From Mesorhizobium sp. (lineage in GTDB: Bacteria; Pseudomonadota; Alphaproteobacteria; Rhizobiales; Rhizobiaceae), in the NCBI GenBank assembly GCA_051860465.1, contig JBHYDY010000008.1, forward strand, positions 35,876 to 99,875: DNA of 64,000 nucleotides, written 5' to 3'. Position 1 is the first letter of the stretch; each line of letters starts with the position of its first letter. Under the pieces are notes generated by a model. The model saw only the letters and a list, made by a program, of their open reading frames with translations, did not search any database and had not been told where the DNA came from. This document shows positions 20,508 through 45,699 of this stretch, in pieces. The translations under genes and the position numbers were made by a program.

Positions 20508-20511
20508 GTGC

Positions 20512-20644
20512 CTGAATCAGAAAGCGCAAGGCCGAGGCGAAAACAGCGATTTCGAGAACCGGAGCGCAGCGTCCATTCGGGTACGTGAGCACCGGAAGCG
20601 CAGAAATTGCGATTTGCAGCCCGGCATGGCGACTTTTGGATCAG
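20512..20644. repeat. ~133-bp intergenic element with imperfect terminal inverted repeats
   Basis: Left end ctgaatcagaaag; the right end cttttggatcag has reverse complement ctgatccaaaag. Internal near-repeats ccggagcgcag / ccggaagcgcag and gcgatttcgag / gcgatttgcag. Confidence 0.35.
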
Positions 20645-20978
20645 ACACTGAGCGATCGGCCCCGGGCCTCCGGTGCAGGCGCGCCCGCGAAGGGCGGACG
20701 CAACGCCCTTTCCGATGATCGGCGCCGGCTGATTTCGTCTGCGAGACGCCGGCCACACAGGCGTTCCAGTCCGCGAGGCGTGGGGCCAGCGGGCTTGGGC
20801 GCACGTCCCGTGTGGTCAAGGCGCCCCGCGGGATCGCCAAGGCGGCGCTCGGGAAGGATGGCGCGGTTCGGAACCATGCCGGCATCCCCCGCGACGCGGA
20901 CAGCAAACCGCCCGCCGGTATGGACCGGCGAGCGCGTTTTCGAAGAGTTCTCCAAGCCAACTCGGAAGCTAGCAACAA

Positions 20979-21938
20979 TTAGAAGTGTAGTTCATCCGAA
21001 TAGGAAAGAGGCGCCCTCAGGTTCGTGAAATCGAAGGTCCTGGCGCCCGAACGGTCTTCTTCCTGAAGCGAACCGCCGAAGGACATGCGCAGACCGACCT
21101 TGAAGGTGTGGGCCCACACCTCTTCCTGGACCAGACCCGTGGTTACCTCAACGTAATCGCCCTGATAACCAACAAAGCCGGAAATCGGCGACGCTCCGAT
21201 TTGCTGCTCGTAGTTCACGGCCAGTTGCAGCCAGTCGAGGTCGCCGCGTTCGTCGGGATCGGTCGTGAACTGAGCATGGTCGGAGATGCCATAGGCGACC
21301 GAACCCTCGAGCCGCGAACCGGGGGCAAAGAAGTAGCGCGCGCCCAGCCGTCCGAACCACAGGTCGTCGACATAGTCGTCGCCCGCGAGGCGACCCGCAT
21401 AGCCAAGCTGGCCGAAGAGGGTCGCGTTGCCGATGAAGTACGCCGCCTCGCCGCCGCCGAAGCCATGGACGCTGCGCTCTTCATCGTCGATGTGCGAGGT
21501 CACCGAGGCGCCGACGAAAGCACCCAGGGCCAGGTCTCCGCTGCGATAGATGTAGTGGCCGCCAAGCGCGGCGTGAAGGGTTCCCTCATCCGGCCTCGTT
21601 TCGTCGTCACGGAGGTTTCCATGGTAGTCGATCAGGTTTTCGAACTGAAGCGCATGGCCATTGCCGAAGCTGTAGTGAGCCCGCGCGTCGGACCCCATCC
21701 CCCATGCATCACCGCAGAACATGCCATCGCCACATGAGGCCGAAAAATCATCATCTTCAAAGACGCCAGAACGCCCCCATCCGCTCGGCGACACGTACTG
21801 GCCCCAGATGGCGACGTTGCCGGAGAACCGCTCGGCGACCGGTTCCGCCATGATCGCATCGGCGGCAAAAGCCGGCGTCGCCGATACAAGGGCAGCGGCA
21901 GCGGCGGCGCCCAGCAATCCAATCGACAATCTCTTCAC
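20979..21938 (-). CDS. Outer-membrane beta-barrel (porin-like) protein
   Basis: Signal peptide MKRLSIGLLGAAAAAALVSATPAFA, alternating aromatic/Gly-rich strands, C-terminal ...DELHF with terminal Phe. Confidence 0.65.
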   Translation of the reverse strand: MKRLSIGLLGAAAAAALVSATPAFAADAIMAEPVAERFSGNVAIWGQYVSPSGWGRSGVFEDDDFSASCGDGMFCGDAWGMGSDARAHYSFGNGHALQFENLIDYHGNLRDDETRPDEGTLHAALGGHYIYRSGDLALGAFVGASVTSHIDDEERSVHGFGGGEAAYFIGNATLFGQLGYAGRLAGDDYVDDLWFGRLGARYFFAPGSRLEGSVAYGISDHAQFTTDPDERGDLDWLQLAVNYEQQIGASPISGFVGYQGDYVEVTTGLVQEEVWAHTFKVGLRMSFGGSLQEEDRSGARTFDFTNLRAPLSYSDELHF

Positions 21939-22237
21939 GACGAATCTCCCTGCTACCCTTCGTTGTAAATCAAAATACAGAAATGCCCGTGTCCGGAAAG
22001 CACACCCCGCGCTCCTATGCCATTTTTGGCGCCGTTTTCCTGCCCGATTGTTGCGAATCCATCACACTCACCGGTGCGACGTCTCGGGACGCCGCGACGC
22101 GACCCTGCACGGTTCACGCGACATCCTGGAGGCCCTTTCGGCCAGCTTGGCCGTCACCGGAAAGGCACGAACCGCGGAAACGACCTCGCCCAAGGTCCTG
22201 TCGCCGCTGAATTCCCGTATGTATTCAAGGATTTAGC

Positions 22238-22314
22238 TGGCGCACCCGACAGGATTCGAACCTGTGACCTCTGCCTTCGGAGGGCAGCACTCTATCCAGC
22301 TGAGCTACGGGTGC
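22238..22314 (-). tRNA. tRNA-Arg (anticodon CCG)
   Basis: Reverse complement reads GCACCCGTAGCTCAGCTGGATAGAGTGCTGCCCTCCGAAGGCAGAGGTCACAGGTTCGAATCCTGTCGGGTGCGCCA. Anticodon loop CTCCGAA; encoded CCA. Confidence 0.95.
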
Positions 22315-22448
22315 GCGCCACGAGGAACGTATCCCCGCATCGGCCCGGGCCGCCAGGAAGCGGAACGGGCACTGGCTACATAGCCGAAGCCGCGCGGCGC
22401 TTCAACAGCCGATGTCGGGATGAACGGGTCTCGTCGCCGCCCTGTTCC

Positions 22449-23118
22449 GGATGACCGGGAAGCACGAAGCGCGGGCTTGCGGGCCTGTCCTTTCGGTGGC
22501 CGCACGCGCGGCCACCGCTCATTCGCCTGGCGCGGTGGTCGACCGAGGCGCGGCGTGCCCGGCACGCCGCGCGGCGGGGCGGTCGCCAAAGCCGAAGGCG
22601 AGGCGCAGCGGCCAGGGCAGGCGCTCGGCCGCCATGGCGATCGTGAGCGACAGCGCGGCCGTGACCAGAACCACCAGCCCGAACGTGGGCCAGGCGCCGG
22701 CCTCGATCGGCAGCACCAGGTAGAGCGCCCACACGATCACCGTCTGGTGGACGATGTAGAGGGCAAACACCTTGCCGTTCAGCCAGGAAAGCGCGGCGCT
22801 CCCTCGGTCGAGATGGACGGGGGCGAAGCCGACGGCCGTCAGGATCATCGTCCAGGCGAGTGCAAGGACCAGCGCCTTGAACGCCGGCGTCTGGTTCTCC
22901 CACGAACCGAGCGATCCGGCGGCGTCTGGCGCGGGCAGGAAGCAGGAGGCATAGAGCACAACCGTGAGACCGAGCACCAGCGCCGCGCTGACCCAGCGGC
23001 GCGCGACGATTGAGCCGATGATCTCGGCGTGATGGCGGGCAAACAGGAAGCCGAAGCCGAACCACGACGCCCACACCGCGAACCAGGCGCCGTCATTGTA
23101 GAGCGCATTGGTCTGGCG
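22449..23118. repeat. 670-bp direct repeat, left copy
   Basis: Collinear with 31700-32369 (offset 9251). I find 3 mismatches: 22491 g/c, 22969 a/g, 23019 t/c. Confidence 0.95.
22519..23118 (-). pseudogene. Orphan 3' fragment of acyltransferase-3 gene
   Basis: Encodes the last ~200 aa of the protein made by 31770-32984, with one I/V difference. There is no 5' half; homology stops abruptly at 23118. Confidence 0.9.
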
Positions 23119-23279
23119 CGGCTCTAGGGTCTGTCGAGATTCATCGCACGGCGCCGCGCCGAAGCCTCGTGCGGTGAACCTCGGCAGAGCCTAGCCCAAA
23201 TGGGCCATGACGCCATCCTGGCGACCCTGCATTGTGATTGTGCGCGCGCCTGTCGTGCTCACTCACTTGGGAGTCGACG

Positions 23280-23945
23280 ATGCATATTGAGATGGCGATG
23301 GCCAGGCGGACTCCATCTGGCGCCATGATTGCCGCGACAATCGGACTTGCCTGTCTGTGTCTCTCGTTTCTTTCGGCCACGTCGGCAGAGGCGACACCGA
23401 AGAACCTTCAGGGAAAGACGATACAATTCACCTACACGTCCTCGACTTCCGGCCTCTCGTGCGTGCACCGCTCCTCAATCCGCATCGCCAGGGATCAGCT
23501 CTTCTACGGCCACGAACTCATCAGTTGCGGTGAGGGCGCGGGTGAAAATCTGCCAAAGGGATATGGCTGGATCATCCCGGTCAACGGAACGGCGCCGGTC
23601 AAGAATGCCTGCAAGTCAAATTATGGCGACAGGGTGGAGCGCTGCACGGATGGCTATGTCCGCAAGCGCAATGGCAAAATGCGCGCCTCCGAAACCTGGA
23701 GCGGCTCCGTATCGAGCAAGGTCACCGAAAGCAAGATCCAGGTCCACATGCGCAGAAACACAGTCGGGAGGTGGTCCACGACGGACGGAGGTGGCGGCAC
23801 CTACAACGTGAACCAAGACTACAAGCTTGCGATATCCGTATCCGGCAAGGGCTGCCAGGTCACCGAATACCGGCTCCGAATTACCGGATCCACGACTGCC
23901 GCCCACAACTTCAGATCCTCACAGAAGTGCTCGATCTCGGGCTAG
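23280..23945 (+). CDS. Hypothetical secreted protein (weakly similar to 28120-28818)
   Basis: MHIEMAMARRTPSGAMIAATIGLACLCLSFLSATSAEA signal-like N-terminus. Beta-rich Ser/Thr/Gly composition, several Cys, ends ...QKCSISG. Confidence 0.55.
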   Translation: MHIEMAMARRTPSGAMIAATIGLACLCLSFLSATSAEATPKNLQGKTIQFTYTSSTSGLSCVHRSSIRIARDQLFYGHELISCGEGAGENLPKGYGWIIPVNGTAPVKNACKSNYGDRVERCTDGYVRKRNGKMRASETWSGSVSSKVTESKIQVHMRRNTVGRWSTTDGGGGTYNVNQDYKLAISVSGKGCQVTEYRLRITGSTTAAHNFRSSQKCSISG

Positions 23946-24177
23946 TGGACGATCGGGTTGCAGGTCGCGGACGAACGGCGATCCAAAGCAACCCATGCCG
24001 GTGTCTCGTTTCTCCGGGAAGAGGTGAGGCTCCGAATGAAACAATGTGAGGCCGGAGAAAACCCATGGAAACAAACGAGCCAATTTCATCCAGAAATCTC
24101 GCGCATTCCACAAGAAATAGGCCGTTCCAGAGCCCGACTGAATTTGTCATCCGCGATGAATAGATGAGCAGCCGCAC

Positions 24178-25776
24178 ATGCCGATAACCGTTGCCCTGCC
24201 GGACGTGAAAATCAGAAACATCGTCTGGATGATGATGGTCGCGACGTTCCTTCTGTGGCCGACTCTCGGTCATGCGCGGTTTCAAGTCCTCGAGCCGAAA
24301 CAGGGCACGGGCGACACCAAGCGCATGGCCCTGGTCATCGGCAACGCAGCCTACCGCTCGGTCACCGCTCTCAAGAACACCACCAACGACGCCGGCGCGG
24401 TGGCGGACTCCGCGCGCGATCTCGGGTACCGTGTATTCCTCGCACTGGATCTCGATCGAAGCGGCATGAACCGCGTGATAAGTGAGTTCCTTCGGACCAT
24501 CGATTCGAACACGGAGGTCCTATTCTACTATGCCGGGCACGGCGTGGAGTTGCAGGGCTCGAACTATCTCTTCCCCATCGACGTCCCCCTTCTTTCATCC
24601 GAGCAGGACCGTCTCCTGCGCAGCGAGGCGATAAGCCTTTCGGACCTCTTGCAGGACTTCGAGTTGCGTTCCGCACGGGTGACGCTGGTCATCCTGGATG
24701 CCTGCAGGGACAACCCGTTCGCCGGTCCGGGCAAGCGGTCGCTCGGCAATACGCGTGGTCTTGGCCGCGTCGATCCGCCGAGCGGAACATTCGTCATCTA
24801 TGCCGCCGGCGCTGGCGAGGCCGCGCTCGACTCGCTTGGCGCCAAGGATACTGACCGGAACGGGCTGTTTACCCGCAGCCTCCTCAAGCACATGAATCGT
24901 GAAGGCCTCGAATTGCGATCCATGGTGCGCGAACTGCGGCAGGAGGTGCGGCAGGCCGCATTGACCGGTGCGGGGCACTCGCAAACGCCCAGCTATTACG
25001 ATCAACTGCTGGGCGATTTCTATTTTCGGCCGCGATCCATGGAGCCGCCGGCGACGTTGGCCTGCGCGGCATTGGTCAGTCCGAACGCATCGCGCTCCGA
25101 CATCCTCTTCAACGACTATCCGAGCATCCTGCTCATCTGTGAACGCGAATTGCAGAGCCGCCCCGCGGACGCTCGGCTCGTCGCGCTCGTCGGCTTGGCG
25201 CGTGAGCAGCGCGCCTTTCAGGCGGCCTTGACGAGCAATCATCCGGCACCCGCCGCGGAATACCTTCGAAAGTTCCCGTCCGGACGATACCTTGAGGGCG
25301 TTCGCCAGTACCTGGCAAGCCTCGATCCACGTCCGTCGCCCGGCCCCGAAATCAACCCGCCGCCACGTCCCGCTCCGACGCCGGTGGACGCCGTGGCACT
25401 CGCTCGCAGTCTTCAGGCGGAACTCAAGCGCGCCGGATGCTATGGCGGAACCGTCGACGGGGTGTGGGGAAACATGAGCCGCCGTGCGGTTTCGGAGTTC
25501 GCGCGCTTTGCCAGCCTCGAACTCCCAGGCGAGGAACCGTCCCAAACCCTGCTGGACATGATCCAGCCTTTCGGCGACCGCGTGTGTCCGCTGACCTGCG
25601 ATGCGCGCCATGAAGCCAGGGGCGAGCAGTGCGTTCTCAAGATCTGCGGCGCGGGCCAGGTGCTATCGACGAAAGGCATCTGCGTACGGCGCCAGGCTGA
25701 ACGCAAGGTGGAGCGAAAGCCTGCCGGCGGCGGCGGCAATTGCTTCAATTTCAACGGAGTGCGGCATTGCGACTAG
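24178..25776 (+). CDS. Caspase-like (peptidase C14) protein with peptidoglycan-binding domain
   Basis: N-terminal hydrophobic anchor. His-Cys dyad in YYAGHGVE and VILDACRDNPF. PG_binding_1-like LQAELKRAGCYGGTVDGVWGNMSRRAV. Cys-rich tail ending CFNFNGVRHCD. Confidence 0.85.
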   Translation: MPITVALPDVKIRNIVWMMMVATFLLWPTLGHARFQVLEPKQGTGDTKRMALVIGNAAYRSVTALKNTTNDAGAVADSARDLGYRVFLALDLDRSGMNRVISEFLRTIDSNTEVLFYYAGHGVELQGSNYLFPIDVPLLSSEQDRLLRSEAISLSDLLQDFELRSARVTLVILDACRDNPFAGPGKRSLGNTRGLGRVDPPSGTFVIYAAGAGEAALDSLGAKDTDRNGLFTRSLLKHMNREGLELRSMVRELRQEVRQAALTGAGHSQTPSYYDQLLGDFYFRPRSMEPPATLACAALVSPNASRSDILFNDYPSILLICERELQSRPADARLVALVGLAREQRAFQAALTSNHPAPAAEYLRKFPSGRYLEGVRQYLASLDPRPSPGPEINPPPRPAPTPVDAVALARSLQAELKRAGCYGGTVDGVWGNMSRRAVSEFARFASLELPGEEPSQTLLDMIQPFGDRVCPLTCDARHEARGEQCVLKICGAGQVLSTKGICVRRQAERKVERKPAGGGGNCFNFNGVRHCD

Positions 25777-25781
25777 CCAGG

Positions 25782-27392
25782 GTGAAAGTCCGTCCCCGAA
25801 CGGCGACGGCGGATTCTCGAAATGCCTATCGTGGCGGGCTTTTTCTCGCCATGGCCGCGTCCCTGTTCCTTTCGGCTCCGCTTTCGGCACAAGAAGAGAT
25901 CGATCCCGGCGACGAACACATCTTCGCCAGCGGTGCCTTGCCCACGGACGAAAGATTGCTGCGGAGCTTCCCGTCCACTCCGACTTTCCGAGCGTTCCTG
26001 CCCGAGAAGGTCGACCTGTCTCGCCATTTCCCCGCCCCAGGCAATCAAGGCATTCAGGGTTCCTGCGTGGGCTGGGCGGTGGGTTATGCGGCGCGCGCCT
26101 ATTATTCGCAGACCGTCGAAAACAAGCCAGTCAGAAACCAGTCCAACATCCCAAGCCCCGCCTACATCTACAATTCGATCCTGGCGGATCCCACCGATTG
26201 CGATTCCGGATCTCGCATTCCCGTGGCCCTCGATCTGCTCCAGACCGGTGCGAGGTCGCTGAAGGATTTTCCGTACAACGACCGTCGATGCGCGGCGCCA
26301 TCCTCCCAAGCGAAAGCGAGCGCCACGGAGTTCAGGATTGCCGACTGGCGGTTTGTCGACAGCGCCCGGCTGGATCAGTTGAAGGGCGAACTGGCGCAAG
26401 GCAACCCGGTCATCATATCGATGCGGGTGCGCAAGAATTTTCATCGCCTGCGAGGCGCCAAAATCTACAAGGGCGACAATTCGCAAGAGAGCGGACATCA
26501 TGCCATGACCGTGACCGGCTACGACGAGCGCAAGCAGGCGTTCCGGCTGATCAACTCCTGGGGCAGGAAGTGGGGGGATGGCGGCTATGCATGGGTCTCC
26601 TACGATACCTTCGAGAAGGAGGTGCGCGAGGCGTACGTGATACGCGTCGACGCGCGTCCGCGGCCGGCGCCTATCGTGATCCCGGAGCCGGGTCCGGTTC
26701 CTGCCCCGACACCAAGGCCCGGACCGACGATCGTGGATCCCGGCGTCGTCATCAGCGGTCTCGAATGCGGCCGCGTTTCCATTGGGGTCCGCGACGGCCG
26801 GATTGTCGCGAGCGGCTTCGTCGGATCGACCGACGACATGGAAAAGCTGAACGCGCAACTCGCCGGCAAGTCGATCCTGAACCACGCGGAGTTGCGGCCC
26901 TGGCCTCAATGCGAGACCCTGCTGACGCTCGACGAGCAACTCTCGATGCCGCAGCGACCGGAAATCCTGTACCAGACCGAGGATGACGGACTGTCGGAGG
27001 GGAGCCTGCTCGTCTTCGACATCAAGACGCCCGCCTTCCAGAGCTACCTTCACCTTGCCTACGTCCAGGCGGACGGATCCGTCGTGCATCTGCGACAGTC
27101 CGATGCAACGACGTTGCGAACGCTTGCCCCCGGCACCCACATCAAGCTTGGCGATGGCAAGGCCGGTCCGAAGTTCCGGATCAGCGAACCGTTCGGCAAC
27201 GAGATGATGTTGGCGATTTCCTCGCGCAGCCCGCTCTTCCCGAGCCCCCGTCCCCAAATCGAAACGGAACGAGAGTTCCTCACGGCCTTGAGGCGCGCCA
27301 TCCTCGAGTCTCCGGACGGAGAAAGCCAGCGGCTGGTCAGCGCGTCCTATCGGGCATTCGTGACCAAGAAGGGAGAAGTCGAGCCGCAATGA
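25782..27392 (+). CDS. Papain-like (peptidase C1) cysteine protease fused to DUF4384-like C-terminal domain
   Basis: Signal peptide LFLAMAASLFLSAPLSAQ. Q-C-H-N set: NQGIQGSCVGWA, GHHAMTVTGY, INSWGRKWGDGGY. Pro-rich linker, then LLVFDIKTP...YVQADGSVVHL...FRISEPFGNEMMLAISSRSPLF. Start uncertain (GTG 25782 or TTG 25740). Confidence 0.8.
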   Translation: MKVRPRTATADSRNAYRGGLFLAMAASLFLSAPLSAQEEIDPGDEHIFASGALPTDERLLRSFPSTPTFRAFLPEKVDLSRHFPAPGNQGIQGSCVGWAVGYAARAYYSQTVENKPVRNQSNIPSPAYIYNSILADPTDCDSGSRIPVALDLLQTGARSLKDFPYNDRRCAAPSSQAKASATEFRIADWRFVDSARLDQLKGELAQGNPVIISMRVRKNFHRLRGAKIYKGDNSQESGHHAMTVTGYDERKQAFRLINSWGRKWGDGGYAWVSYDTFEKEVREAYVIRVDARPRPAPIVIPEPGPVPAPTPRPGPTIVDPGVVISGLECGRVSIGVRDGRIVASGFVGSTDDMEKLNAQLAGKSILNHAELRPWPQCETLLTLDEQLSMPQRPEILYQTEDDGLSEGSLLVFDIKTPAFQSYLHLAYVQADGSVVHLRQSDATTLRTLAPGTHIKLGDGKAGPKFRISEPFGNEMMLAISSRSPLFPSPRPQIETEREFLTALRRAILESPDGESQRLVSASYRAFVTKKGEVEPQ

Positions 27393-27904
27393 GGTATCTT
27401 ATCAGCGCCATATCCGCGATCTCGATCGCGACGCTAGCGTGCGGCGACGCCCACGGTCAGGACCGGTCCGCCGAAGACATCGTACGCGCCTTGTTGCCGC
27501 ATGGCGCCCAGACGCGGTCGCTTCGCGGCGTGACCGTTGAGCCCGGCCAGGAGGAGATGTCCCCGAGCATCGATCTGCAAGTCAATTTCGCGTACGATTC
27601 GGCCGAGCTCGCCAACGAGGCGCTGATCACGTTGAAGGCGCTTGGCGTGGCGCTGCAGGACGAGCGGCTGAAGGGATCCAATTTCGTCATCGTCGGCCAC
27701 ACGGACGCGAAGGGATCGGACGCCTACAACCTCGCTCTTTCGGAAAAGCGGGCGCTCGCCGTCCGCAACCACCTCGCCTTCTATTACGGCATCGAACTCT
27801 CCCGGCTGGCGTCGATCGGCCAGGGCGAAAGCCAACTGGCCTTTCCGGACGATCCCGAAAATGACCTCAACCGGAGAGTCGAAATCCGCAACGTCAAACC
27901 CTAG
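27389..27904 (+). CDS. OmpA/MotB-family peptidoglycan-binding protein
   Basis: Signal peptide, then NFAYDSAEL...FVIVGHTDAKGSDAYNLALSEKRALAV...NRRVEIRN. The ATG overlaps the upstream TGA (ATGA). Confidence 0.88.
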   Translation: MRYLISAISAISIATLACGDAHGQDRSAEDIVRALLPHGAQTRSLRGVTVEPGQEEMSPSIDLQVNFAYDSAELANEALITLKALGVALQDERLKGSNFVIVGHTDAKGSDAYNLALSEKRALAVRNHLAFYYGIELSRLASIGQGESQLAFPDDPENDLNRRVEIRNVKP

Positions 27905-27910
27905 AGTAGC

Positions 27911-28034
27911 AATGTCCGACCAGATTGAACCATTCTGCCGGGAACGGATCGATGCGCTACGTCGACCTTCGCTGGCCTTCTTGCGGATCGCCTCGCTAAC
28001 GGCAAACAGAATTGTTTCAATCTGATCGGACATT
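27911..28034. repeat. 124-bp element bounded by 27-28-nt inverted repeats (MITE-like hairpin or terminator)
   Basis: 27911 aatgtccgaccagattgaaccattctg versus the reverse complement of 28007-28034, aatgtccgatcagattgaaacaattctg. About 3 differences; about 69-nt spacer; starts 7 nt after the OmpA-like stop. Confidence 0.6.
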
Positions 28035-28119
28035 GCTCTAAGGCCAGATTCCGACGTTTCCATCCCTTCTGGGTGTTCTTCCCAACGGGATTCGAATGTC
28101 GGATTGGGCGCGATATTCT

Positions 28120-28818
28120 TTAATTTGAGACGATCCTGCAGGCCGTGCTCACCGGTATGTCGGTTCGCAGCTTGTATTTGGCATCCCTGCTTCTATGCTT
28201 GACCGAGACGTCCTGTACCGTACAGGAGGAGCCGTTAACGACGATCGAAAAATTGTAAGTGCCGATATAACCGTTTGACCTGAAGTCATTCGTGTATGTG
28301 ACCGCGGCGCCCCTTGAGTTGGGACGAACGCGCAAACTATAGGTATCCCCCTTTCCTCCCTTTATATTTCTCGTCATCTCGACGCCATTCTTGCCGAAAA
28401 TCTCACCGCTGCCAGATTTTCCGCCCTTGACTTCGTCATACAGGAAAAGCTTTCCAGACTTGTCGGCGTATATGTTCACGCTGACAGGTATCGCCGCGAT
28501 GCCGCTGCACACCGACCCTCTGCACCACCGGAAGCCCGTGACAATGCCGGAGCGTACTCGTTTCCCTCGAAGCTCCGCGATCGAGGACGCTTCCGCGAAC
28601 TCCACGAACGGTGCAAGCGAGATCGGGACAAGAAGCGCGACCACCGCCGATCGGCGTGCAACGTCCCGGAATGATTGGGCAATGCGTGTGTTGAAGGCCT
28701 TGATCACGTCCACGACTCCGTTTCGACCATTGTCCGGCATCGATCTTCGAGACCCGGCGGCTGAGCCGGGGGAAGATTGCCATGCTCCCAACTGATCACC
28801 CGAACGGCATCGGGTCAT
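28120..28818 (-). CDS. Hypothetical secreted protein (weakly similar to 23280-23945)
   Basis: Internal hydrophobic signal/anchor RRSAVVALLVPISLAPFVEFAEA, Gly/Lys/Ser-rich beta-type sequence, ends ...STACRIVSN. Start uncertain (ATG 28818, ATG 28740 or a GTG further in). Confidence 0.5.
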   Translation of the reverse strand: MTRCRSGDQLGAWQSSPGSAAGSRRSMPDNGRNGVVDVIKAFNTRIAQSFRDVARRSAVVALLVPISLAPFVEFAEASSIAELRGKRVRSGIVTGFRWCRGSVCSGIAAIPVSVNIYADKSGKLFLYDEVKGGKSGSGEIFGKNGVEMTRNIKGGKGDTYSLRVRPNSRGAAVTYTNDFRSNGYIGTYNFSIVVNGSSCTVQDVSVKHRSRDAKYKLRTDIPVSTACRIVSN

Positions 28819-28925
28819 GATGCATTTGCGTCATGCGCGTCGTGCAGGTCGGCCTGCTCACGCGCCGGCTCGCAAAACCATGAATCCAAACGAACTTTCC
28901 AATTCACGCCTTAAGCACCGAAAGA

Positions 28926-30161
28926 TTGCGCTCGTGGTCCTTAGAGGTTAACCTGCTTCCGGAAGCGCGCGGTCGAGCCGCGCGAACGGTGACGGAGGCT
29001 ATTGCTTTGAGCCAGATTTCCTTGAAGCAGTACAATGCCATACTGGAAACCATCTACAGCGCTCCGATAAACGAGGACTGGCAGTCGGTCCTCGAGATAT
29101 TGTCCACTTCGATGGGCCATATTCACACACACATGTTCGGGCACGACATCGACCTGAACAGGCAACTGTCGCTCTCCGGCAGCATGTACGACCCCGCCAT
29201 GCTCGACACCTACAACGCCTATTACCACGAGAGGAATGCCTGGATTCCCGGCGTTGCCCGCTCCGAAGTCGGCAAGGCGAGATACAGCGAAACCTACTGC
29301 CCAACGGCGGAATTGATTAAGACGGAGTTCTTCAACGACTGGCTACGCCCGCAGGAGGAGATCGGCGGCGGCGGCGGCATCGTCCTGTTCAATGACGGCG
29401 ACCGCTTCATCATCGTCGGTGGGAACATCCGGTTCAAGGACCGGGACGAGAAGGAGAGGCAATGGATCGAACTGCTCGATCTGCTGGCACCCCATTTCCG
29501 CAGGGCGTTCGGCGCCTATCGTGCCCTGTCGGAGGCAAAGCTCGTGGGTCAGGGATACCGCGAGGCGCTGGACCATGTGGGTTATGCGGTCATCCTCCTC
29601 GACCGGGACGGTAGCGTAAGTCATCAGAACGCGCAGGCCGACAGGCTGTCGAGGCCGGGAACGCTGTTCCATCTCGATGGGTCCCGCAGGCTTCGCGCGT
29701 TCGACACACGTGCGAGTGAGACGATCCGCCAAACGCTGGCCGCCATGCGATCTGGCCTGCTGACGGAACTGCCCGATGTCTTCACGATCCGGGAGAAGGA
29801 CAGCGGAACGCCCCATCTTTCGATGCTTCTGCCTTTCCCGGTCAATGGCGAGGTCGAGGGCGCCGGCATGGCGAAAGCAGTTTTCGGCGAGACGACACCC
29901 ATCGCCATGCTGATCGTGAAGGATCCGTCGAAAGCCGGTCGTCCGGCCAAGCAGGTCCTGGCGTCGCTCTACGGATTGACGCCGGCGGAAGCGGCGGTCG
30001 CGGTTGCCCTCGCCGAAGGACAGTCACTGAAGACCTACGCGGACACGCAGTCCGTAACCGTCCACACGGTGCGCAACCAGCTCAAGGCGATCTTCGGCAA
30101 GACGGGGACCAGCCGACAGGCCGACCTGGTTGCACTGCTCGGGCGCCTGAGTCCACGTTGA
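28926..30161 (+). CDS. LuxR-family transcriptional regulator with uncharacterised N-terminal domain
   Basis: C-terminal HTH LTPAEAAVAVALAEGQSLKTYADTQSVTVHTVRNQLKAIFGKTGTSRQADLV. The likely true start is TTG 29007, 8 nt after GGAGG. Confidence 0.8.
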   Translation: MRSWSLEVNLLPEARGRAARTVTEAIALSQISLKQYNAILETIYSAPINEDWQSVLEILSTSMGHIHTHMFGHDIDLNRQLSLSGSMYDPAMLDTYNAYYHERNAWIPGVARSEVGKARYSETYCPTAELIKTEFFNDWLRPQEEIGGGGGIVLFNDGDRFIIVGGNIRFKDRDEKERQWIELLDLLAPHFRRAFGAYRALSEAKLVGQGYREALDHVGYAVILLDRDGSVSHQNAQADRLSRPGTLFHLDGSRRLRAFDTRASETIRQTLAAMRSGLLTELPDVFTIREKDSGTPHLSMLLPFPVNGEVEGAGMAKAVFGETTPIAMLIVKDPSKAGRPAKQVLASLYGLTPAEAAVAVALAEGQSLKTYADTQSVTVHTVRNQLKAIFGKTGTSRQADLVALLGRLSPR

Positions 30162-30350
30162 TCGAGCGGCAGCCGGCGCTCCGATTCCTGTGCCACCGCC
30201 GCCGAAGCTGCGCGACGATGCGCCACCGACGCGGCCAGGTTTTGAGCACGAAATCACGCGATTGTGTTACCCCGGTGTTACCCTGCCAAATGGCAAGCCA
30301 GCAGAGCACTTTGTATGGGTCAGATTGTCTATATAAATCAGGAAGTTGCG

Positions 30351-31689
30351 GGTCGTGTGCGTCAAGTTCTGCAAATTGGGCGGCCACGGCTCTGGTCATG
30401 CGGCTTTTCGGAGTTCGAGCTTCTTGTGCTCTCTGAGGTCGTCCATGTTGAGGTAACGGTTGGCCTCCATCCAGTTTTCGTTGGTTTCGACCGCGAGCGC
30501 GCGCACGAGGCGCAGGCAGCTCTCGGTGTTGGGGAAGATGCGCACGACGTAGGTTCGGCGCCGGATCTCCTCGTTGAGACGCTCGAGCATGTTGGTGGAC
30601 TTCAGGTGCTTGTGGTGCTGTCGTGGCAGCCGGAAGAAGGTGAGCGTCTGCTCGATGGTCTCCTCCGCCCAGCCCGTCAGGCGCGGATACTTGCCTGACC
30701 ACTTGGCGAGCCAGGTGGCGAGATCGGCCTTGGCCTCGGCGAGATCGCGTCGATCGTAAAGCCAGCGCAGTTCCTGCAGGCAGTCGTCGCCATGCTTCCT
30801 GGGCAGGTGGTCGAGCGCGTTCCTGAGGAAGTGCAAGTAGCAGCGCTGCCAGGCAGCTTCTGGGATGACCTCGCCGATTGCCGCGACGAGGCCGGCATGG
30901 TCGTCGGACACGACCAGTTCGACGCCCTTGAGGCCACGCGCCTTCAGGCCGACGAGAAAGTCCCGCCAGGCCGAGCGGCTCTCGCGATTGGCCATTTCGA
31001 CGCCCAGGATCTGGCGCCGCCCGTCCCAGTCGATGCCGACCGCGATCAGCACCGCCTGGCTCATCACCACGCCTCCCTCGCGCACCTTCTCGTAGCGCGC
31101 GTCGAGGATGAGATAGGGAAAGGGCTCCTGAAGCGGGCGCCTGGCAAAGGCGGCGAGGCTCTCGTCCAGCCGCTTGTTGATGGCAGAGATCGACGAGGCC
31201 GAGAAGGCGTGGCCGCACAGTTCCTCGGTGATCGCCTTGACCTTGCGGGTCGAGACGCCCTGCACATACATCTCCGCCAGCGTCGCCACCAAGGCCCGCT
31301 CCGAACGCTGGTAGCGCTCGAACAGCTCGGTCGAGAAGCGGCCCTGCCGGTCCTGCGGCACCTTGAGCTCGAGCTTGCCGACACGCGTCACCAGCGTGCG
31401 GCCGTAATGGCCCGAACGGTAGCCGAGCCGCTCCGGCGTGCGTTCGCTCTTCGAGGCAGCGAGCGCCTCGTCCATCTCGGCTTCCAGAACCTCCTGCATC
31501 ACGGCGCGGATCACATCGCGCAGCCCATCGGGGTTCGAAAGCAGAATGTCTTTTACGGCGGCGCTGGCGGTCTTACCTTCGGTCTTGGTCATGGTGGCGC
31601 TCCTTCGCGGGAATCAGGTGACGTTGAACATCACCAGCCTGCCATGACCGCCCCTCTCGGCGAATTTGCAGAACTCTCCGCACACTACC
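30351..31689 (-). mobile_element. IS256-family insertion sequence (~1.34 kb)
   Basis: Imperfect terminal IRs: ggtcgtgtgcgtcaagttctgcaaatt (left) versus the reverse complement of the right end, ggtagtgtgcggagagttctgcaaatt. A single transposase ORF fills the element. Confidence 0.8.
30396..31592 (-). CDS. IS256-family transposase
   Basis: 398 aa with a mutator-type pattern: YLILDARYEKVREGG...WQRCYLHFLRNALDHLPRK...LERLNEEIRRRT. Confidence 0.92.
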   Translation of the reverse strand: MTKTEGKTASAAVKDILLSNPDGLRDVIRAVMQEVLEAEMDEALAASKSERTPERLGYRSGHYGRTLVTRVGKLELKVPQDRQGRFSTELFERYQRSERALVATLAEMYVQGVSTRKVKAITEELCGHAFSASSISAINKRLDESLAAFARRPLQEPFPYLILDARYEKVREGGVVMSQAVLIAVGIDWDGRRQILGVEMANRESRSAWRDFLVGLKARGLKGVELVVSDDHAGLVAAIGEVIPEAAWQRCYLHFLRNALDHLPRKHGDDCLQELRWLYDRRDLAEAKADLATWLAKWSGKYPRLTGWAEETIEQTLTFFRLPRQHHKHLKSTNMLERLNEEIRRRTYVVRIFPNTESCLRLVRALAVETNENWMEANRYLNMDDLREHKKLELRKAA

Positions 31690-31699
31690 AGGCGGTGCA

Positions 31700-32369
31700 G
31701 GATGACCGGGAAGCACGAAGCGCGGGCTTGCCGGCCTGTCCTTTCGGTGGCCGCACGCGCGGCCACCGCTCATTCGCCTGGCGCGGTGGTCGACCGAGGC
31801 GCGGCGTGCCCGGCACGCCGCGCGGCGGGGCGGTCGCCAAAGCCGAAGGCGAGGCGCAGCGGCCAGGGCAGGCGCTCGGCCGCCATGGCGATCGTGAGCG
31901 ACAGCGCGGCCGTGACCAGAACCACCAGCCCGAACGTGGGCCAGGCGCCGGCCTCGATCGGCAGCACCAGGTAGAGCGCCCACACGATCACCGTCTGGTG
32001 GACGATGTAGAGGGCAAACACCTTGCCGTTCAGCCAGGAAAGCGCGGCGCTCCCTCGGTCGAGATGGACGGGGGCGAAGCCGACGGCCGTCAGGATCATC
32101 GTCCAGGCGAGTGCAAGGACCAGCGCCTTGAACGCCGGCGTCTGGTTCTCCCACGAACCGAGCGATCCGGCGGCGTCTGGCGCGGGCAGGAAGCAGGAGG
32201 CATAGAGCACAACCGTGAGGCCGAGCACCAGCGCCGCGCTGACCCAGCGGCGCGCGACGATTGAGCCGACGATCTCGGCGTGATGGCGGGCAAACAGGAA
32301 GCCGAAGCCGAACCACGACGCCCACACCGCGAACCAGGCGCCGTCATTGTAGAGCGCATTGGTCTGGCG
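31700..32369. repeat. 670-bp direct repeat, right copy (part of the intact gene)
   Basis: See 22449-23118. It starts 10 nt after the IS256 right end and covers 70 nt of 3' flank plus the last 600 nt of the acyltransferase CDS. Confidence 0.95.
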
Positions 32370-32984
32370 GGGGAAGAACGGCGACAGGGCCAGGTTGAGC
32401 GCCAGCGGCACGAGAAAGAGCAGGTGCACGAAGGGCGAGCGCATGAAAACCGCGAAGGCCTTGGACATCGGCTCCCCGCGCGCGGACTTCAGGAAATGGA
32501 AGATCGGGAACAGCCCGACGGCCATGACCAGCAGGTAGGCCACGAACCACATATGCGCCCAGGTGATGTTGCCCGAGGGATACTTGCCTTCGGTGAAGTA
32601 GCGTTCGATCCAGAAGGTGAACAGCGAGCCCTGGTAGCCCTCTTCCATCACGCGCTCGAGCCAGACCTGCGGCACCACCACGACCGCCATGGCGAACAGG
32701 AGCGGCACGAGCAGGCGCAGGGTGCGGTCGCGCAGGAAGGCAAGGCCGGGCGCTGAGCGGAACGCGAACCAGGTGCCCATGCCCGAGACGAAGAAGAGCA
32801 GCGCCAGCCGCCAGGCGCGCGGGAAGTCCATGGCCCAGGACAGGGCCTGGCTGGTCTGCGCGCTCTTCACCAGCCAGGACATGTCCGGAAAGAAGGCGAC
32901 CGAGCAGTGGTAGAAGATCAGCAGGCCGAAGGCGAGAACCCGCAGCCAGTCGACGTAGTGGAGCCTGCCTGTCGTCACGATCAT
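31770..32984 (-). CDS. Acyltransferase family 3 membrane protein (OpgC/O-acyltransferase-like)
   Basis: 404 aa, about 10 TM segments. N-terminus RLHYVDWLRVLAFGLLIFYHCSVAF is typical of the acyltransferase_3 family. Confidence 0.85.
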   Translation of the reverse strand: MIVTTGRLHYVDWLRVLAFGLLIFYHCSVAFFPDMSWLVKSAQTSQALSWAMDFPRAWRLALLFFVSGMGTWFAFRSAPGLAFLRDRTLRLLVPLLFAMAVVVVPQVWLERVMEEGYQGSLFTFWIERYFTEGKYPSGNITWAHMWFVAYLLVMAVGLFPIFHFLKSARGEPMSKAFAVFMRSPFVHLLFLVPLALNLALSPFFPRQTNALYNDGAWFAVWASWFGFGFLFARHHAEIVGSIVARRWVSAALVLGLTVVLYASCFLPAPDAAGSLGSWENQTPAFKALVLALAWTMILTAVGFAPVHLDRGSAALSWLNGKVFALYIVHQTVIVWALYLVLPIEAGAWPTFGLVVLVTAALSLTIAMAAERLPWPLRLAFGFGDRPAARRAGHAAPRSTTAPGE

Positions 32985-35064: not shown

Positions 35065-35934
35065 TCAACCGCCGTCGGTCGTCGCCAGCGCGCCGTAGAG
35101 TTCGGGCCGACGGTCGCGGAACAGGCCCCAGGCCGCGCGCTGGCGGGCGAGTGCTGTCCGGTCGAAACTGGCGATCAGCACCGCCTCGCCATCCCGGCCG
35201 GCTTCGGCGACAAGCTCGCCCGTGGCGCCGGCGATGAAGGAGGAGCCGTAGTAGGTCTGGGTGCGGCCGCCAACGGTCTCGACGCCGATCCGGTTGGCGG
35301 CCGCCACCGGCATCAGGTTGGCGCCGGCATGGCCGCGCATGGTGATGCGCCAGTGCTCCATGGAATCGAAGTCCGGCCGGCCGGGCTCCGAGCCGATGGC
35401 GGTCGGATAGAGCAGCATCTCGGCGCCCATGAGCGCCATGGCGCGCGCCGCCTCGGGAAACCACTGGTCCCAGCAGATGCCGATGCCGATGGCGCCGAAG
35501 CGGGTCGGCCAGACCCTGAAGCCGGTGTCGCCGGGCGTGAAGTAGAACTTCTCCTCGTAGCCCGGCCCGTCGGGAATGTGCGACTTTCGGTAGACGCCGA
35601 GCACCGTCCCGGTGTCGTCGACCATGGCGACGGAATTGAAGTAGGCCTGGTTTCGGCGCTCGAAGAAGGAGACAGGGATGACGATGCCCAGTTCGCGCGC
35701 CAGGGCCTTGAAGGCCGCGATCGTCGGATGCCCCTCCAGCGTCCGGGCACGGTCGAAGTGGCTCGGGTCTTCCTCCTGGCAGAAATAGAGCCCTTCGAAG
35801 AGCTCCTGCACGAGCACGACGTTGGCGCCGCGCGCCGCCGCGTCGCGGACCAGTCGAGAGGCGGTCGCGACGTTTTGCGCCACGTCGTCGGCGCAGGCGA
35901 ACTGGACGACGCCGAGCGTGACGGTCGTGCTCAA
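35065..35934 (-). CDS. aguB: N-carbamoylputrescine amidase (CN-hydrolase family)
   Basis: VVLVQELFEGLYFCQEE, YRKSHIPDGPGYEEKFYFTPGD, catalytic-Cys segment GIGICWDQWFPE. The TTG start overlaps the upstream TGA (TTGA) and follows GAGGAAGG. Confidence 0.85.
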   Translation of the reverse strand: MSTTVTLGVVQFACADDVAQNVATASRLVRDAAARGANVVLVQELFEGLYFCQEEDPSHFDRARTLEGHPTIAAFKALARELGIVIPVSFFERRNQAYFNSVAMVDDTGTVLGVYRKSHIPDGPGYEEKFYFTPGDTGFRVWPTRFGAIGIGICWDQWFPEAARAMALMGAEMLLYPTAIGSEPGRPDFDSMEHWRITMRGHAGANLMPVAAANRIGVETVGGRTQTYYGSSFIAGATGELVAEAGRDGEAVLIASFDRTALARQRAAWGLFRDRRPELYGALATTDGG

Positions 35935-36968
35935 CTGTTGCCTTCCTCGAAGCCCGTCAGCACGCCGACCGCGTTGACGCCGATCTCCTCGACGGCGTAG
36001 CCGCCTTCCATGACGAAGAGGGTCGGCAGGCCGAGCGCGGCGATCCGGCGGCCGATCTTGGGATAATCCTCGGTGACGAGCTTGAACTTGGAGATCGGAT
36101 CCCGCTCGAACGTGTCGACGCCGAGCGACACGACGACGACATCCGGCCCATAGGCGACGAGTTTCAGGCAGGCATCGACGAGGGCCGCCCCCCAGCCGTC
36201 CCAGTCGGTGCCCCAGGGCAGCGGATAGTTGTGGTTGAAGCCTTCGCCCTCGCCCTCCCCGCGCTCGTCGGCGTAGCCGAGGAAATAGGGGTATTCCATC
36301 TTCGGGTCGCCGTGCAGGTTCAGCACCTGGACGTCGCCGCGTCCGTAGAAGATTTCCTGCGTGCCGTTGCCGTGATGATAATCGACGTCGAGGATCGAGA
36401 CCTTGCTGGCGCCGTTGTCGATCAGCCACTGCGCGGCGATCGAGGCGTTGTTCAGGTAGCAGTAGCCGCCCATGAAGGCGCGTCCGGCGTGGTGTCCCGG
36501 CGGACGGCAGAGCGCGAATGCGGCCGGCTCCCCGCCCGAAACCAGCGCCGCGGCCGTCAGCGCCACGTCGTGGGAGGACTTGATCGCGTCCCAGGTTCCT
36601 TCGACGAAGCCGGCGCCCGCGTCGAACGAATAGTAGCCGAGCTGCGCCTCGATGACGTCGGGCACGACGTCGCCGCGCAGGCCGCGCGTCGGCCAGGTGT
36701 AGGGCAGCGCCGTGCCGCCGAAGCCGGCCGCCGTCCAGCGCTCCCAGACCGTCGGCATGAAGTCGACATAGGCGGGGTCATGGACGCGGCGGGCGGTATC
36801 GAGGTCGAACTCGTCTGGCGGCAGGATCGGCCCGAGGCCGACTTCTTCGGCCCGCGACCGGATGAACTCGGCGCGCGACGGCATTTCGAAGGCCGGCATG
36901 ATCTTGCCCGTCATCAACTCGACATTGCCGGCATGACCCGCGTGCCGGGGCGAATAGATGGTCTTCAT
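35931..36968 (-). CDS. Histone-deacetylase-family amidohydrolase (acetylpolyamine amidohydrolase-like)
   Basis: CRPPGHHA and DVDYHHGNGTQEIF zinc/active-site motifs. Start at MKTIYSPRH; the upstream part of the track ORF is shadow sequence. Confidence 0.85.
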   Translation of the reverse strand: MKTIYSPRHAGHAGNVELMTGKIMPAFEMPSRAEFIRSRAEEVGLGPILPPDEFDLDTARRVHDPAYVDFMPTVWERWTAAGFGGTALPYTWPTRGLRGDVVPDVIEAQLGYYSFDAGAGFVEGTWDAIKSSHDVALTAAALVSGGEPAAFALCRPPGHHAGRAFMGGYCYLNNASIAAQWLIDNGASKVSILDVDYHHGNGTQEIFYGRGDVQVLNLHGDPKMEYPYFLGYADERGEGEGEGFNHNYPLPWGTDWDGWGAALVDACLKLVAYGPDVVVVSLGVDTFERDPISKFKLVTEDYPKIGRRIAALGLPTLFVMEGGYAVEEIGVNAVGVLTGFEEGNS

Positions 36969-43773: not shown

Positions 43774-45699
43774 ATGTTCGGCAAACGATCAATCACGTTC
43801 AAGCTTGTGCTGGCCGCGCTCGGCGTCAGTCTTGCGGGTCTCGGTGCCTCCGTGGCCCTCATCGACCGGACGGCGAAGAGCAGCCTCCATGATCTCGCCA
43901 CCGATGCCTGGGTCATCCAGACCGGCCAGATCGCCACGGCGGCGGCTGGCGGCATCCGCTGGAAGAAGCCCGAGGTGGTCGCGGATGCCTGGGCGGCGTA
44001 CCAGACCAACGAGGACCGCATTCTTTCGCGCGCCATCGCCTTCGATCCGACTGGAAACGTCATCGCCGAGTTCGCCGCGCCCGGAGTTTCGGCCGCGGCG
44101 ATCGACACCTCGCTGCGGCGTCTGCTCGCCGCGCCGGGCGATGGCACGGCGGTCGAGGCGATCGACGGCAACGTGCTGATGGTGGCCCCATCCGGGACGA
44201 GTGCCGAGGGCAAGCCTCTCGGCTACGTCGCGTTGGCCTGGAACACCGGTCCGGTCGAAGCCGCGCGTTCCTCGCTCCGTATCGGGGCTTCGGGCGTCCA
44301 GGCGGTCTCGGCGCTGCTTCTCCTGGCGCTGCTGTTCCTCAGCATACGCTACGTGGTCGGCCGACCGCTCGGCGCGATCACCCAGCGCATCGAGAAGCTT
44401 TCCAACGGCGATCTCGAGTCGACCGTTCCAAACCTCGACCGCTCGGACGAGGTCGGCGTCATTGCCCGCTCTCTGGAAGGTTTCCGCAAGGCCTCGCTCG
44501 ACAAGCTCGAAGCCGATCGGGAACTCGACGCGCAGCGTCGCCAGATGGAGGAGCAACGCGACGAGAACGACGCCTCCCGCAGTTCGGCCGCCAAGCTTCA
44601 GGCGGCCGTCGTCAAGCTCATCGGCGCGGCGCTCGCACGTCTGGCCGATGGCGACCTGACGACGCGGCTCAAGGTCGACTTCCCGCCCGAGTACCGCAAG
44701 ATCAAGGACGATTTCAACACGGCCATGGATCGGCTGCAGGATGCCATGCAGCAGATCGTCGCCACAGGGCGCCAGCTTGAGCATGGCACCGACGAGATCC
44801 GCCGCGCGGCCGACGAACTCGCCCGTCGCAGCGAACAGCAGGCCGCAACCATCGAGGAGACGGTCGCCGCGGTCGGGGAAATCACTCGCTCGGTCTCCGC
44901 AACGGCCACCGGCGCGGGACAGGCCCGTGCGGCGGTTGTCGACATGACGACCGACACCGGCCACAGCGACAAGGTGGTGGGCGCCGCCATCTCGGCGATG
45001 GGCGGCATCGAGAAATCCTCCGAGGAGATTTCCAAGATCATCGGCGTCATCGACGAGATCGCGTTCCAGACCAACCTGCTGGCGCTCAATGCTGGCGTCG
45101 AGGCCGCGCGCGCCGGCGAAGCCGGCCGCGGCTTTGCCGTCGTGGCGCAGGAAGTGCGGGGACTGGCGCAGCGTTCGGCCGACGCCGCGCGCGAGATCAA
45201 GCAGCTCATCCAGACCTCCGCCGGGCAGGTGAAGACCGGCGCCAAGCTGGTCGGCGAGACCGGCGACGTCATCGGGCGAATCGCCGCGCGGGTCGAAAGC
45301 ATCAATTCCATCGTCACCGAGATCGCCCGGAGTGCCGAGGAACAGGCCGCGACCCTTCGCGGCATCAACTCGGCCATGAACGGCATCGACACCGCCACGC
45401 AGCAAGGCGCGGCGATGGCGCAGCAGTTCACCGCCACGAGCCGCGGCCTCGCCCGGGATGGCGAGGAGTTGAACCGGCTGATGGCGCATTTCCGCGGCGC
45501 GGAGAGCCATTCGAACGAACGACCCTCAGCGGCTCGCGCCGAACCTGCCCGTCAGGCGCCCGCTCTGGCGCCGGTCGCTTCGAACCGTCGACCAGAGCCC
45601 GCGAACACCTGGCGCGAACCGATGCGCGCCCGCGCCGCGACCCATGGCGCCAATGCGCTCGACATCGAGGCCGAGGCAGACGGCTGGGAAGAGTTCTGA
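43774..45699 (+). CDS. Methyl-accepting chemotaxis protein
   Basis: TM - periplasmic region - TM - HAMP, then the highly conserved [42 protein letters not shown]. Start is 43774 or 43738. Confidence 0.92.

Follow-up and report, generated by a model that had tools for sequence, protein, structure and literature searches.

How does a block of foreign DNA come to lie between an acyltransferase gene and the tRNA-Arg(CCG) gene that natively neighbours it, with no integrase beside it and with both genes intact? This question is raised by a stretch of 64,000 nucleotides (nt) from Mesorhizobium sp. (GenBank assembly GCA_051860465.1, contig JBHYDY010000008.1, positions 35,876 to 99,875 of the forward strand), which as a whole is called the window below and whose own positions are used throughout. 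In the window, about 8.6 kb of DNA is enclosed by 670-bp direct repeats (22449-23118 and 31700-32369), and the repeats together with the enclosed cargo are referred to here as the islet. Overall, the results show a real and lineage-specific insertion-duplication, found in one strain of an Aquibium-like soil bacterium. As for its origin, we lean slightly towards insertion-duplication by a single homologous crossover with a circle that carried a fragment of the acyltransferase gene, as the geometry of the locus suggests.

The original prediction had described the repeats as 670 bp long with three mismatches, and a base-by-base self-comparison of the window gives just this: at an offset of 9251, 22449-23118 runs collinear with 31700-32369 and differs from it at three paired positions (22481/31732, 22969/32220 and 23019/32270), which amounts to a divergence of 0.45%, or 99.5% identity. 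Beyond both intervals the identity at this offset falls to chance, and the pair is the sole long repeat within the window. As had also been proposed, the right copy (minus strand) is the final 600 nt of an intact acyltransferase gene plus 70 nt of its 3' flank, and so provides the functional 3' end of that gene, while the left copy, on the same strand, is an orphan 3' fragment without the 5' half. The complete gene (31770-32984, minus strand) encodes a full-length Acyl_transf_3 protein of 404 aa, which covers positions 2-325 of the 326 in the PF01757 profile (E=2e-23), also matches OpgC/MdoC distantly, and has orthologues in 54 loci. The open reading frame (ORF) of the left fragment (22519-23076, minus strand) covers profile positions 188-325 only, that is, the C-terminal half of the domain.

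The state of the site without the islet is seen in relatives. The acyltransferase protein was searched against one genome per species, which gave the 54 loci, and closer relatives were reached through the 90%-identity cluster of the acyltransferase. An empty site, with the tRNA gene next to a single-copy acyltransferase, had been expected, and it is found at several distances from the strain. In the three closest loci of the species-level search, belonging to Aquibium carbonis, Aquibium sp. ELW1220 and a 'Mesorhizobium' metagenome-assembled genome (L001-L003, 86% protein identity), tRNA-Arg(CCG) lies in each 115-205 nt past the single-copy acyltransferase gene, with synteny on the right side conserved over more than 10 kb. 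An ENA metagenome contig (L059, 88% DNA identity) has the same order of acyltransferase, spacer and tRNA-Arg, in one copy and insert-free. Two Logan contigs (L060 and L061, from ERR10639411 and ERR10639415), 98.9% identical to the window, run uninterrupted from a kefB-like gene through the acyltransferase and the spacer into the tRNA; besides these two samples, ERR10639416 also contains the species. The native order of the locus is therefore directly visible as kefB-like gene, acyltransferase, a spacer of ~200 nt and tRNA-Arg. The cargo genes are absent in all 54 related loci, and the duplication without the cargo, which had been named beforehand as evidence that would count against the proposal, was looked for and is seen in no relative examined.

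The comparison with L060 also shows how the two repeat copies relate to the native sequence. L060, which is one continuous sequence, aligns with window 33971-31695 and with 23121-22285, the right copy keeping the native flank of the 5' half of the gene and the left copy keeping the native flank of the spacer; this continuity across the flanks of both copies is exactly as a crossover inside the segment predicts. On the left, the intact tRNA-Arg(CCG) occupies 22238-22314 on the minus strand (ARAGORN; Rfam RF00005, 69 bits) with its 5' side towards the insert, and the native spacer between the acyltransferase 3' flank and the tRNA occupies 22315-22448 on the same strand, aligning with L060/L061 (98.7%) and with L001-L003. 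The spacer joins the left repeat directly, in the same arrangement as in the empty sites, and the resulting gap between the tRNA and the left copy is 134 nt, where 135 bp had been predicted.

The enclosed DNA is compositionally foreign. The G+C content of the cargo (23119-30350) is 60.8% versus 65.7±1.1% in segments of equal size elsewhere in the window (z=-4.5), and its G+C content at third codon positions (GC3) is 0.66-0.81 versus 0.89-0.91 in the acyltransferase, kefB-like and FMO-like core genes, so that the earlier impression of an insert less GC-rich than its flanks is upheld in both base and codon composition. The foreign block of ~8.6 kb consists of six genes for exported proteins or regulators and one ISRm5-like insertion sequence (IS). 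No recombinase or integrase turned up among the insert ORFs in Pfam, NCBIfam and further scans. Nowhere are neighbouring ORFs more than 300 nt apart, so an integrase gene would not fit between them, in agreement with the earlier statement that a tyrosine or serine integrase is absent.

These results bear on the idea of a classical tRNA-targeting island that has since lost its tyrosine or serine integrase, for which the adjacent tRNA-Arg and the variability of the locus, with a truncated tRNA in L059 and 1.7 kb of additional DNA 3' of the tRNA in the window, could be adduced. However, the insert sits on the 5' side of tRNA-Arg, 134 nt past the tRNA 5' end, and the repeats are 670 nt long and derived from the acyltransferase, not from the tRNA, as had been claimed at the outset. 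A second copy of the tRNA 3' end was sought as an attachment (att) repeat and there is none within the window, and neither an integrase nor a remnant of one was found, so we consider this explanation effectively refuted.

The surroundings of the tRNA show some further variation. In L059 (11398-11640), the native tRNA-Arg is cut after ~43 nt, and an unrelated sequence of 125 nt separates it from the complete, diverged tRNA-Arg(CCG) that comes next; because the tRNA copy is truncated and a second complete copy follows, the tRNA-Arg locus is a rearrangement hot spot in relatives. On the tRNA-Arg 3' side of the window, 20508-22226 is a second segment (1.7 kb) without a counterpart in L002, whose FMO-like gene is ~190 nt away from the tRNA. 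The G+C content of this segment is lower (0.61-0.63; GC3 0.73), and neither an integrase nor a tRNA-derived repeat was found in it. Its ORF at 20979-21938 (minus strand) encodes 319 aa with a signal peptide and the C-terminal residues ...ELHF, resembling an outer-membrane beta-barrel, and has no match in Pfam, PHROG or PADLOC.

Since the repeats are long, the assembly itself has to be considered. A contig of the Logan k-mer assembly of SRR30785879 (L055) is 100% identical over 23089-31491 and stops exactly 30 nt (k-1) inside the left repeat, which is expected of a repeat node with two exits, one into the cargo and the other into the 5' half of the gene. The three mismatches make it clear that the data contain two different copies, and the deposited 145-kb NCBI contig passes through the two of them and gives each its own alleles. 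It could be argued that an empty site and a separate molecule, or a second strain, were threaded together via the shared 670-bp node, given that the repeat is longer than typical short reads, that the Logan contig breaks at it, and that the integrated form and an empty site with a free circle share the same k-mer graph and are indistinguishable in it. The integrated form is much more likely, because a free molecule of 8.6 kb could not maintain itself with no replication genes; moreover, the deposited contig spans both copies with their own alleles, and the junction from the left copy to the cargo as well as the branch at the edge are present in the independent assembly L055. We thus regard mis-resolution by the assembler as highly improbable.

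The right end of the cargo is an ISRm5-like IS of the IS256 family, 1339 bp long (30351-31689, minus strand; PF00872 E=2e-159, NF033543 E=2e-109). Its Mutator-type DDE transposase is intact (398 aa, 30396-31592), its terminal inverted repeats have 32-nt arms that are 81% complementary, and its ends coincide with those of 145 plasmid-borne copies in PLSDB, with 85-88% identity to ISRm5-like copies on Mesorhizobium and Sinorhizobium plasmids. The original prediction had located this element rightly, ending 10 nt from the right repeat (31689 vs 31700), but had overlooked that its target duplication is missing and that 8 nt separate it from native DNA. No 8-bp target duplication is present, the flanks being AAGTTGCG at one end and AGGCGGTG at the opposite end, whereas all four related copies on Mesorhizobium and Sinorhizobium plasmids (L062-L065) have a perfect one; because these two flanks differ while those of the relatives are duplicated, they do not come from a simple insertion. 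From the IS end at 31689 to native sequence there are exactly 8 nt (AGGCGGTG), so that at the right junction, J2, the IS lies one duplication length from native sequence. An IS-linked step probably made J2; the missing duplication and the 8-nt distance imply that a separate IS-associated or illegitimate event made the joint between cargo and fragment. Two other readings of the element were tried and rejected: there is no sign of a native allele hit by the IS, the linker AGGCGGTG being missing from the spacers of relatives, and the islet is not a composite transposon, as the window holds a single IS with no second copy, the palindrome at the other cargo edge is unrelated to the IS ends, and there is no short duplication.

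At nucleotide resolution, the repeat edges are uncertain by 2-5 nt. Compared with the same-species empty site L060, the native homology of the right copy starts at 31698, and J2 (31690-31699) is made up of the 8 non-native nt AGGCGGTG followed by 2 nt that already match the empty site. Position 22448 carries a substitution that is private to the left copy; at the far edge of this copy 23119 differs, yet 23120-23121 match. The two copies diverge from each other at 23118/23119, with ambiguity over the three bases that follow. The left junction, J1 (23119-23123), is the 5 nt between the left repeat and a palindrome, and its boundary may lie anywhere from 23118 to 23121. Neither joint is homologous, and any microhomology would amount to 2-3 nt at most. 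The palindrome, which forms the left edge of the cargo (23124-23194), is imperfect, 71 bp long and CTAG-bracketed, with 27-nt arms that are 85% complementary around a 17-nt loop; it has no second copy in the window, is absent from PLSDB and the JGI metagenomes, and could be a small MITE-like (miniature inverted-repeat transposable) element or a terminator. A degenerate IS256-type end was rejected as its identity, local alignments to both IS inverted repeats being no better than shuffles, and so was a transposon-like cargo unit ending at the palindrome, since no 8-bp duplication flanks such a unit.

The junctions are where an origin by unequal joining of sister chromosomes, or by a transposase-driven rearrangement that captured foreign DNA, would have to leave its trace. 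In the former variant, sisters broken after 23118 and before 31698 would have been joined through foreign DNA; in the latter, an aberrant IS256-family reaction at 31689 would have given rise to a tandem duplication of 670 bp, filled by the cargo. Because the IS, without target duplication, lies 8 nt from J2 and the palindrome 5 nt from J1, both joints adjoin structures prone to breakage or transposase action, which is what such an origin would lead one to expect. Nevertheless, two simultaneous illegitimate joins to one foreign fragment would be required, the palindrome bears no relation to the IS ends, the IS has no partner copy in the window, and we know of no described IS256-family reaction that yields a 670-bp duplication. 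An origin of this kind is distinctly unlikely in our judgement.

The three mismatches between the copies had been read as a sign of some age or of a slightly diverged donor. When the sites are polarised against L060 and relatives farther away, the derived state belongs to the right copy at 32270 and to the left copy at 22969 and 22481; the change at 32270 is from Ile to Val, and Val is also found in other close relatives (Ile in P0124; Val in P0125, P0128 and P0122). Two further differences from L060 are common to both copies, so the two copies are each other's closest relatives, and their divergence of 0.45% is about a third of the ~1.25% that separates the strain from L060 across the adjoining 1.6 kb. 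Such a value fits either some age or a very close donor, as had been suggested, while one decaying copy is not indicated: a simple pattern of a decaying pseudogene was rejected, the derived states being split between the copies, and no crossover point can be placed. A step in divergence at the repeat edge was also sought, and there is none at 32370; the divergence from L066 is patchy, with 1-25 differences per 500 nt.

The same sites concern the possibility that linear DNA from a close relative, received by transformation, a gene transfer agent or conjugation, entered through homology-facilitated illegitimate recombination. In this scheme the donor already had the cargo at the locus, homology anchored the DNA on one side, and an illegitimate join at or near the IS end or 23118 left the recipient's 670-bp segment as a duplicate. 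The non-homologous character of both joints, with 2-3 nt of possible microhomology at most, agrees with it, as does the fact that no circle or replicon genes are seen, and the polymorphism of Val and Ile at 32270 among close relatives would fit two alleles meeting. On the other hand, a process of this type normally removes some recipient DNA at the illegitimate joint and does not produce a 670-nt duplication; a donor with the cargo at this locus is needed, and none was found in the 54 loci and the JGI metagenomes; and, with two derived sites relative to L060 common to both copies, that donor would have to be nearly identical to the recipient. We therefore take linear DNA to be an unlikely source.

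Insertion by a single crossover with a circle is the reading that we prefer. A duplicated single-copy segment, one native flank for each copy and foreign DNA between them are the signature of such a crossover, and from this we infer that the donor was a circle, that one crossover took place and in which order the events happened. The foreign DNA (~8.6 kb) would first have been joined on both sides to a copy of the ~670-bp acyltransferase 3' end; J1 (23118/19) and J2 (31697/98) would date from this earlier stage, as products of illegitimate or IS-associated joining, and one such event may have left its trace in the IS, which lacks a target duplication and ends a duplication length away from J2. 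Cargo and fragment would then have formed a circle; a single homologous crossover by the host (RecA-type) between this circle and the chromosomal copy would have rebuilt the intact gene beside the IS end of the cargo, leaving the displaced 3' end on the other side with the spacer and the tRNA promoter. As the segment extends beyond the stop codon and the hairpin that belongs to it, the crossover would restore one complete gene and keep the tRNA promoter region with the tRNA; the event would have left both the acyltransferase and the tRNA undamaged, would be neutral for both genes, and would involve no site-specific recombinase. The Campbell-type interpretation offered in the original prediction thus stands in respect of the insert, the empty site, the foreign composition and the lack of an integrase, while the crossover itself is read from the geometry.

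Several points weigh against this account. No circular form, donor replicon or intermediate was found in PLSDB and the JGI metagenomes, no close relative of the cargo besides the IS exists on PLSDB plasmids, and the junction and cargo-edge sequences are absent in two JGI metagenome scans. The cargo has genes neither for replication nor for transfer that would tell what kind of circle it was, and the uptake of a 670-bp piece of the chromosome by such a circle has to be assumed. The ambiguity of the short-read graph described above counts here too, and other routes could give the same geometry, namely a join of linear DNA that is homologous on one side and illegitimate on the other, or an unequal sister-strand exchange that captured DNA.

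One may go further and picture the islet as an integrase-free mobile unit that finds its address by homology, with the 3' fragment captured from a host gene as its tag, a proposal that we hold to be very doubtful. If it were true, recombination of the two 670-bp repeats by the host would release the islet as a circle, which would spread within the species, perhaps carried by a gene transfer agent or through conjugative mobilisation, and re-insert by a single crossover with the target gene unharmed; the islet would then be a recombination-dependent genomic island and not a one-off accident.

The genes of the cargo were examined as well, and the earlier claim of secreted-protease genes is borne out by two exported peptidases. 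From the left, the first gene (23238-23945, plus strand) encodes a small exported protein, with an ORF of 235 aa that is called as 221 aa from 23280; it has no Pfam, NCBIfam or PHROG match and has two paralogues in L056, a Logan metagenome contig from SRR12705451. It is followed on the same strand by an exported caspase-family protein (Peptidase_C14) with a peptidoglycan-binding domain (24178-25776; PF00656 E=9e-33, PF01471 E=1e-5), whose nearest other homologue is 83% identical, by an exported papain-like protein (Peptidase_C1) with a DUF4384 domain according to Pfam (25740-27392, called as 513 aa from 25851), and by an OmpA/Pal-like peptidoglycan-associated lipoprotein (27389-27904; PF00691 E=1e-15, with YiaD/Pal-type matches in NCBIfam). 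A second small exported protein of unknown family is encoded in the opposite direction (28120-28818, minus strand; an ORF of 232 aa, called as 206 aa). Between the OmpA-like gene and this oppositely oriented gene there is an inverted repeat (27908-28037) whose 25-nt arms, 80 nt apart, are 92% complementary. The last gene before the IS (28926-30161, plus strand) encodes a protein of 411 aa that is a probable LuxR-type regulator, to judge from its sequence. It had been called a LuxR regulator without reserve; four consistent matches to a C-terminal LuxR/FixJ-type helix-turn-helix agree with the name, all on residues ~345-404 (the last 60), but they are weak (GerE E=0.14; NCBIfam BagY/FevT E=1.3e-4; PHROG sigma-factor-like E=2e-5; PDB DosR E=0.22).

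A version of this cargo module, 76-83% identical and with a different gene order, occupies positions 1-5005 of L056, where an inverted regulator gene lies upstream and is followed by the two paralogues of the small exported protein and then by the caspase and papain-like genes. Because L056 holds this reordered version, the module is a recurring but plastic gene set, and more distant caspase homologues have different neighbours. Near, distant and protein searches of PLSDB with the cargo returned only the IS and caspases of at most 35% identity, and exact-protein look-ups gave only a contig apparently of the same strain. A defence-system reading of the cargo was considered and rejected, PADLOC giving generic caspase and MotB-like domain matches only.

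Elsewhere in the window, two gene calls deserve a remark. The longest ORF of a CN_hydrolase gene (35065-36429) has 454 aa and a GC3 of 0.71, and its orthologue is called as 289 aa in L059 and L066; the true start probably lies well downstream of the longest-ORF start. At 45564-45653 ARAGORN calls a 90-nt tRNA-Ala(CGC), for which the Rfam tRNA model stays below its gathering score, and the call is probably a false positive.

On the whole, the locus offers a clean case from nature in which foreign genes have entered a chromosome with no dedicated integrase and have left both a gene and a tRNA intact, and it is a well-documented one, with an empty site available at 98.9% identity. Finders that rely on integrases and short att repeats miss islands of this kind. 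Instability is to be expected of such islands too, as the 670-bp repeats should permit precise loss by recombination. The cargo, with its exported peptidases, OmpA-like lipoprotein and regulator, may matter for the cell-envelope or interaction biology of the strain.

Among known systems, the tRNA-associated genomic islands and integrative elements, which can carry a replacement 3' end of their target gene, come to mind at once: here too a strain-specific block of foreign composition lies by a tRNA, is flanked by direct repeats, and has its target gene restored at one junction. Unlike them, the islet has no integrase, its repeats are 670 nt long at 99.5% identity instead of short att cores, and it sits on the tRNA 5' side and targets the 3' end of a protein-coding gene via long homology. 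With both an integrase and tRNA-derived att repeats lacking, the resemblance to a tRNA-linked island is superficial. The IS is a typical member of the ISRm5/IS256 family in its length of 1339 bp, its Mutator-type transposase and its terminal inverted repeats of ~30 nt, but differs in having no 8-bp target duplication, and, being unpaired, it makes no composite transposon. The islet further shares with homology-facilitated illegitimate recombination, which de Vries and Wackernagel are said to have described in 2002 in naturally transformable bacteria, the integration of foreign DNA without a site-specific recombinase through one stretch of homology and non-homologous joints, while its 670-nt segment is duplicated and not deleted. 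The likeness to Campbell-type insertion-duplication is of another order, since there a single-copy segment becomes two direct repeats around the incoming DNA, each with one native flank, a segment that includes the 3' end of a gene leaves one intact gene, and the process is reversible between the repeats. This is the way in which suicide plasmids integrate and in which F-prime and R-prime plasmids re-integrate through a cloned chromosomal segment. The islet departs from these cases in being natural, in having no vector backbone, replicon or transfer genes, and in that its circular donor is hypothetical; apart from this, the event is of a known type and fairly ordinary, and its geometry follows from textbook recombination.

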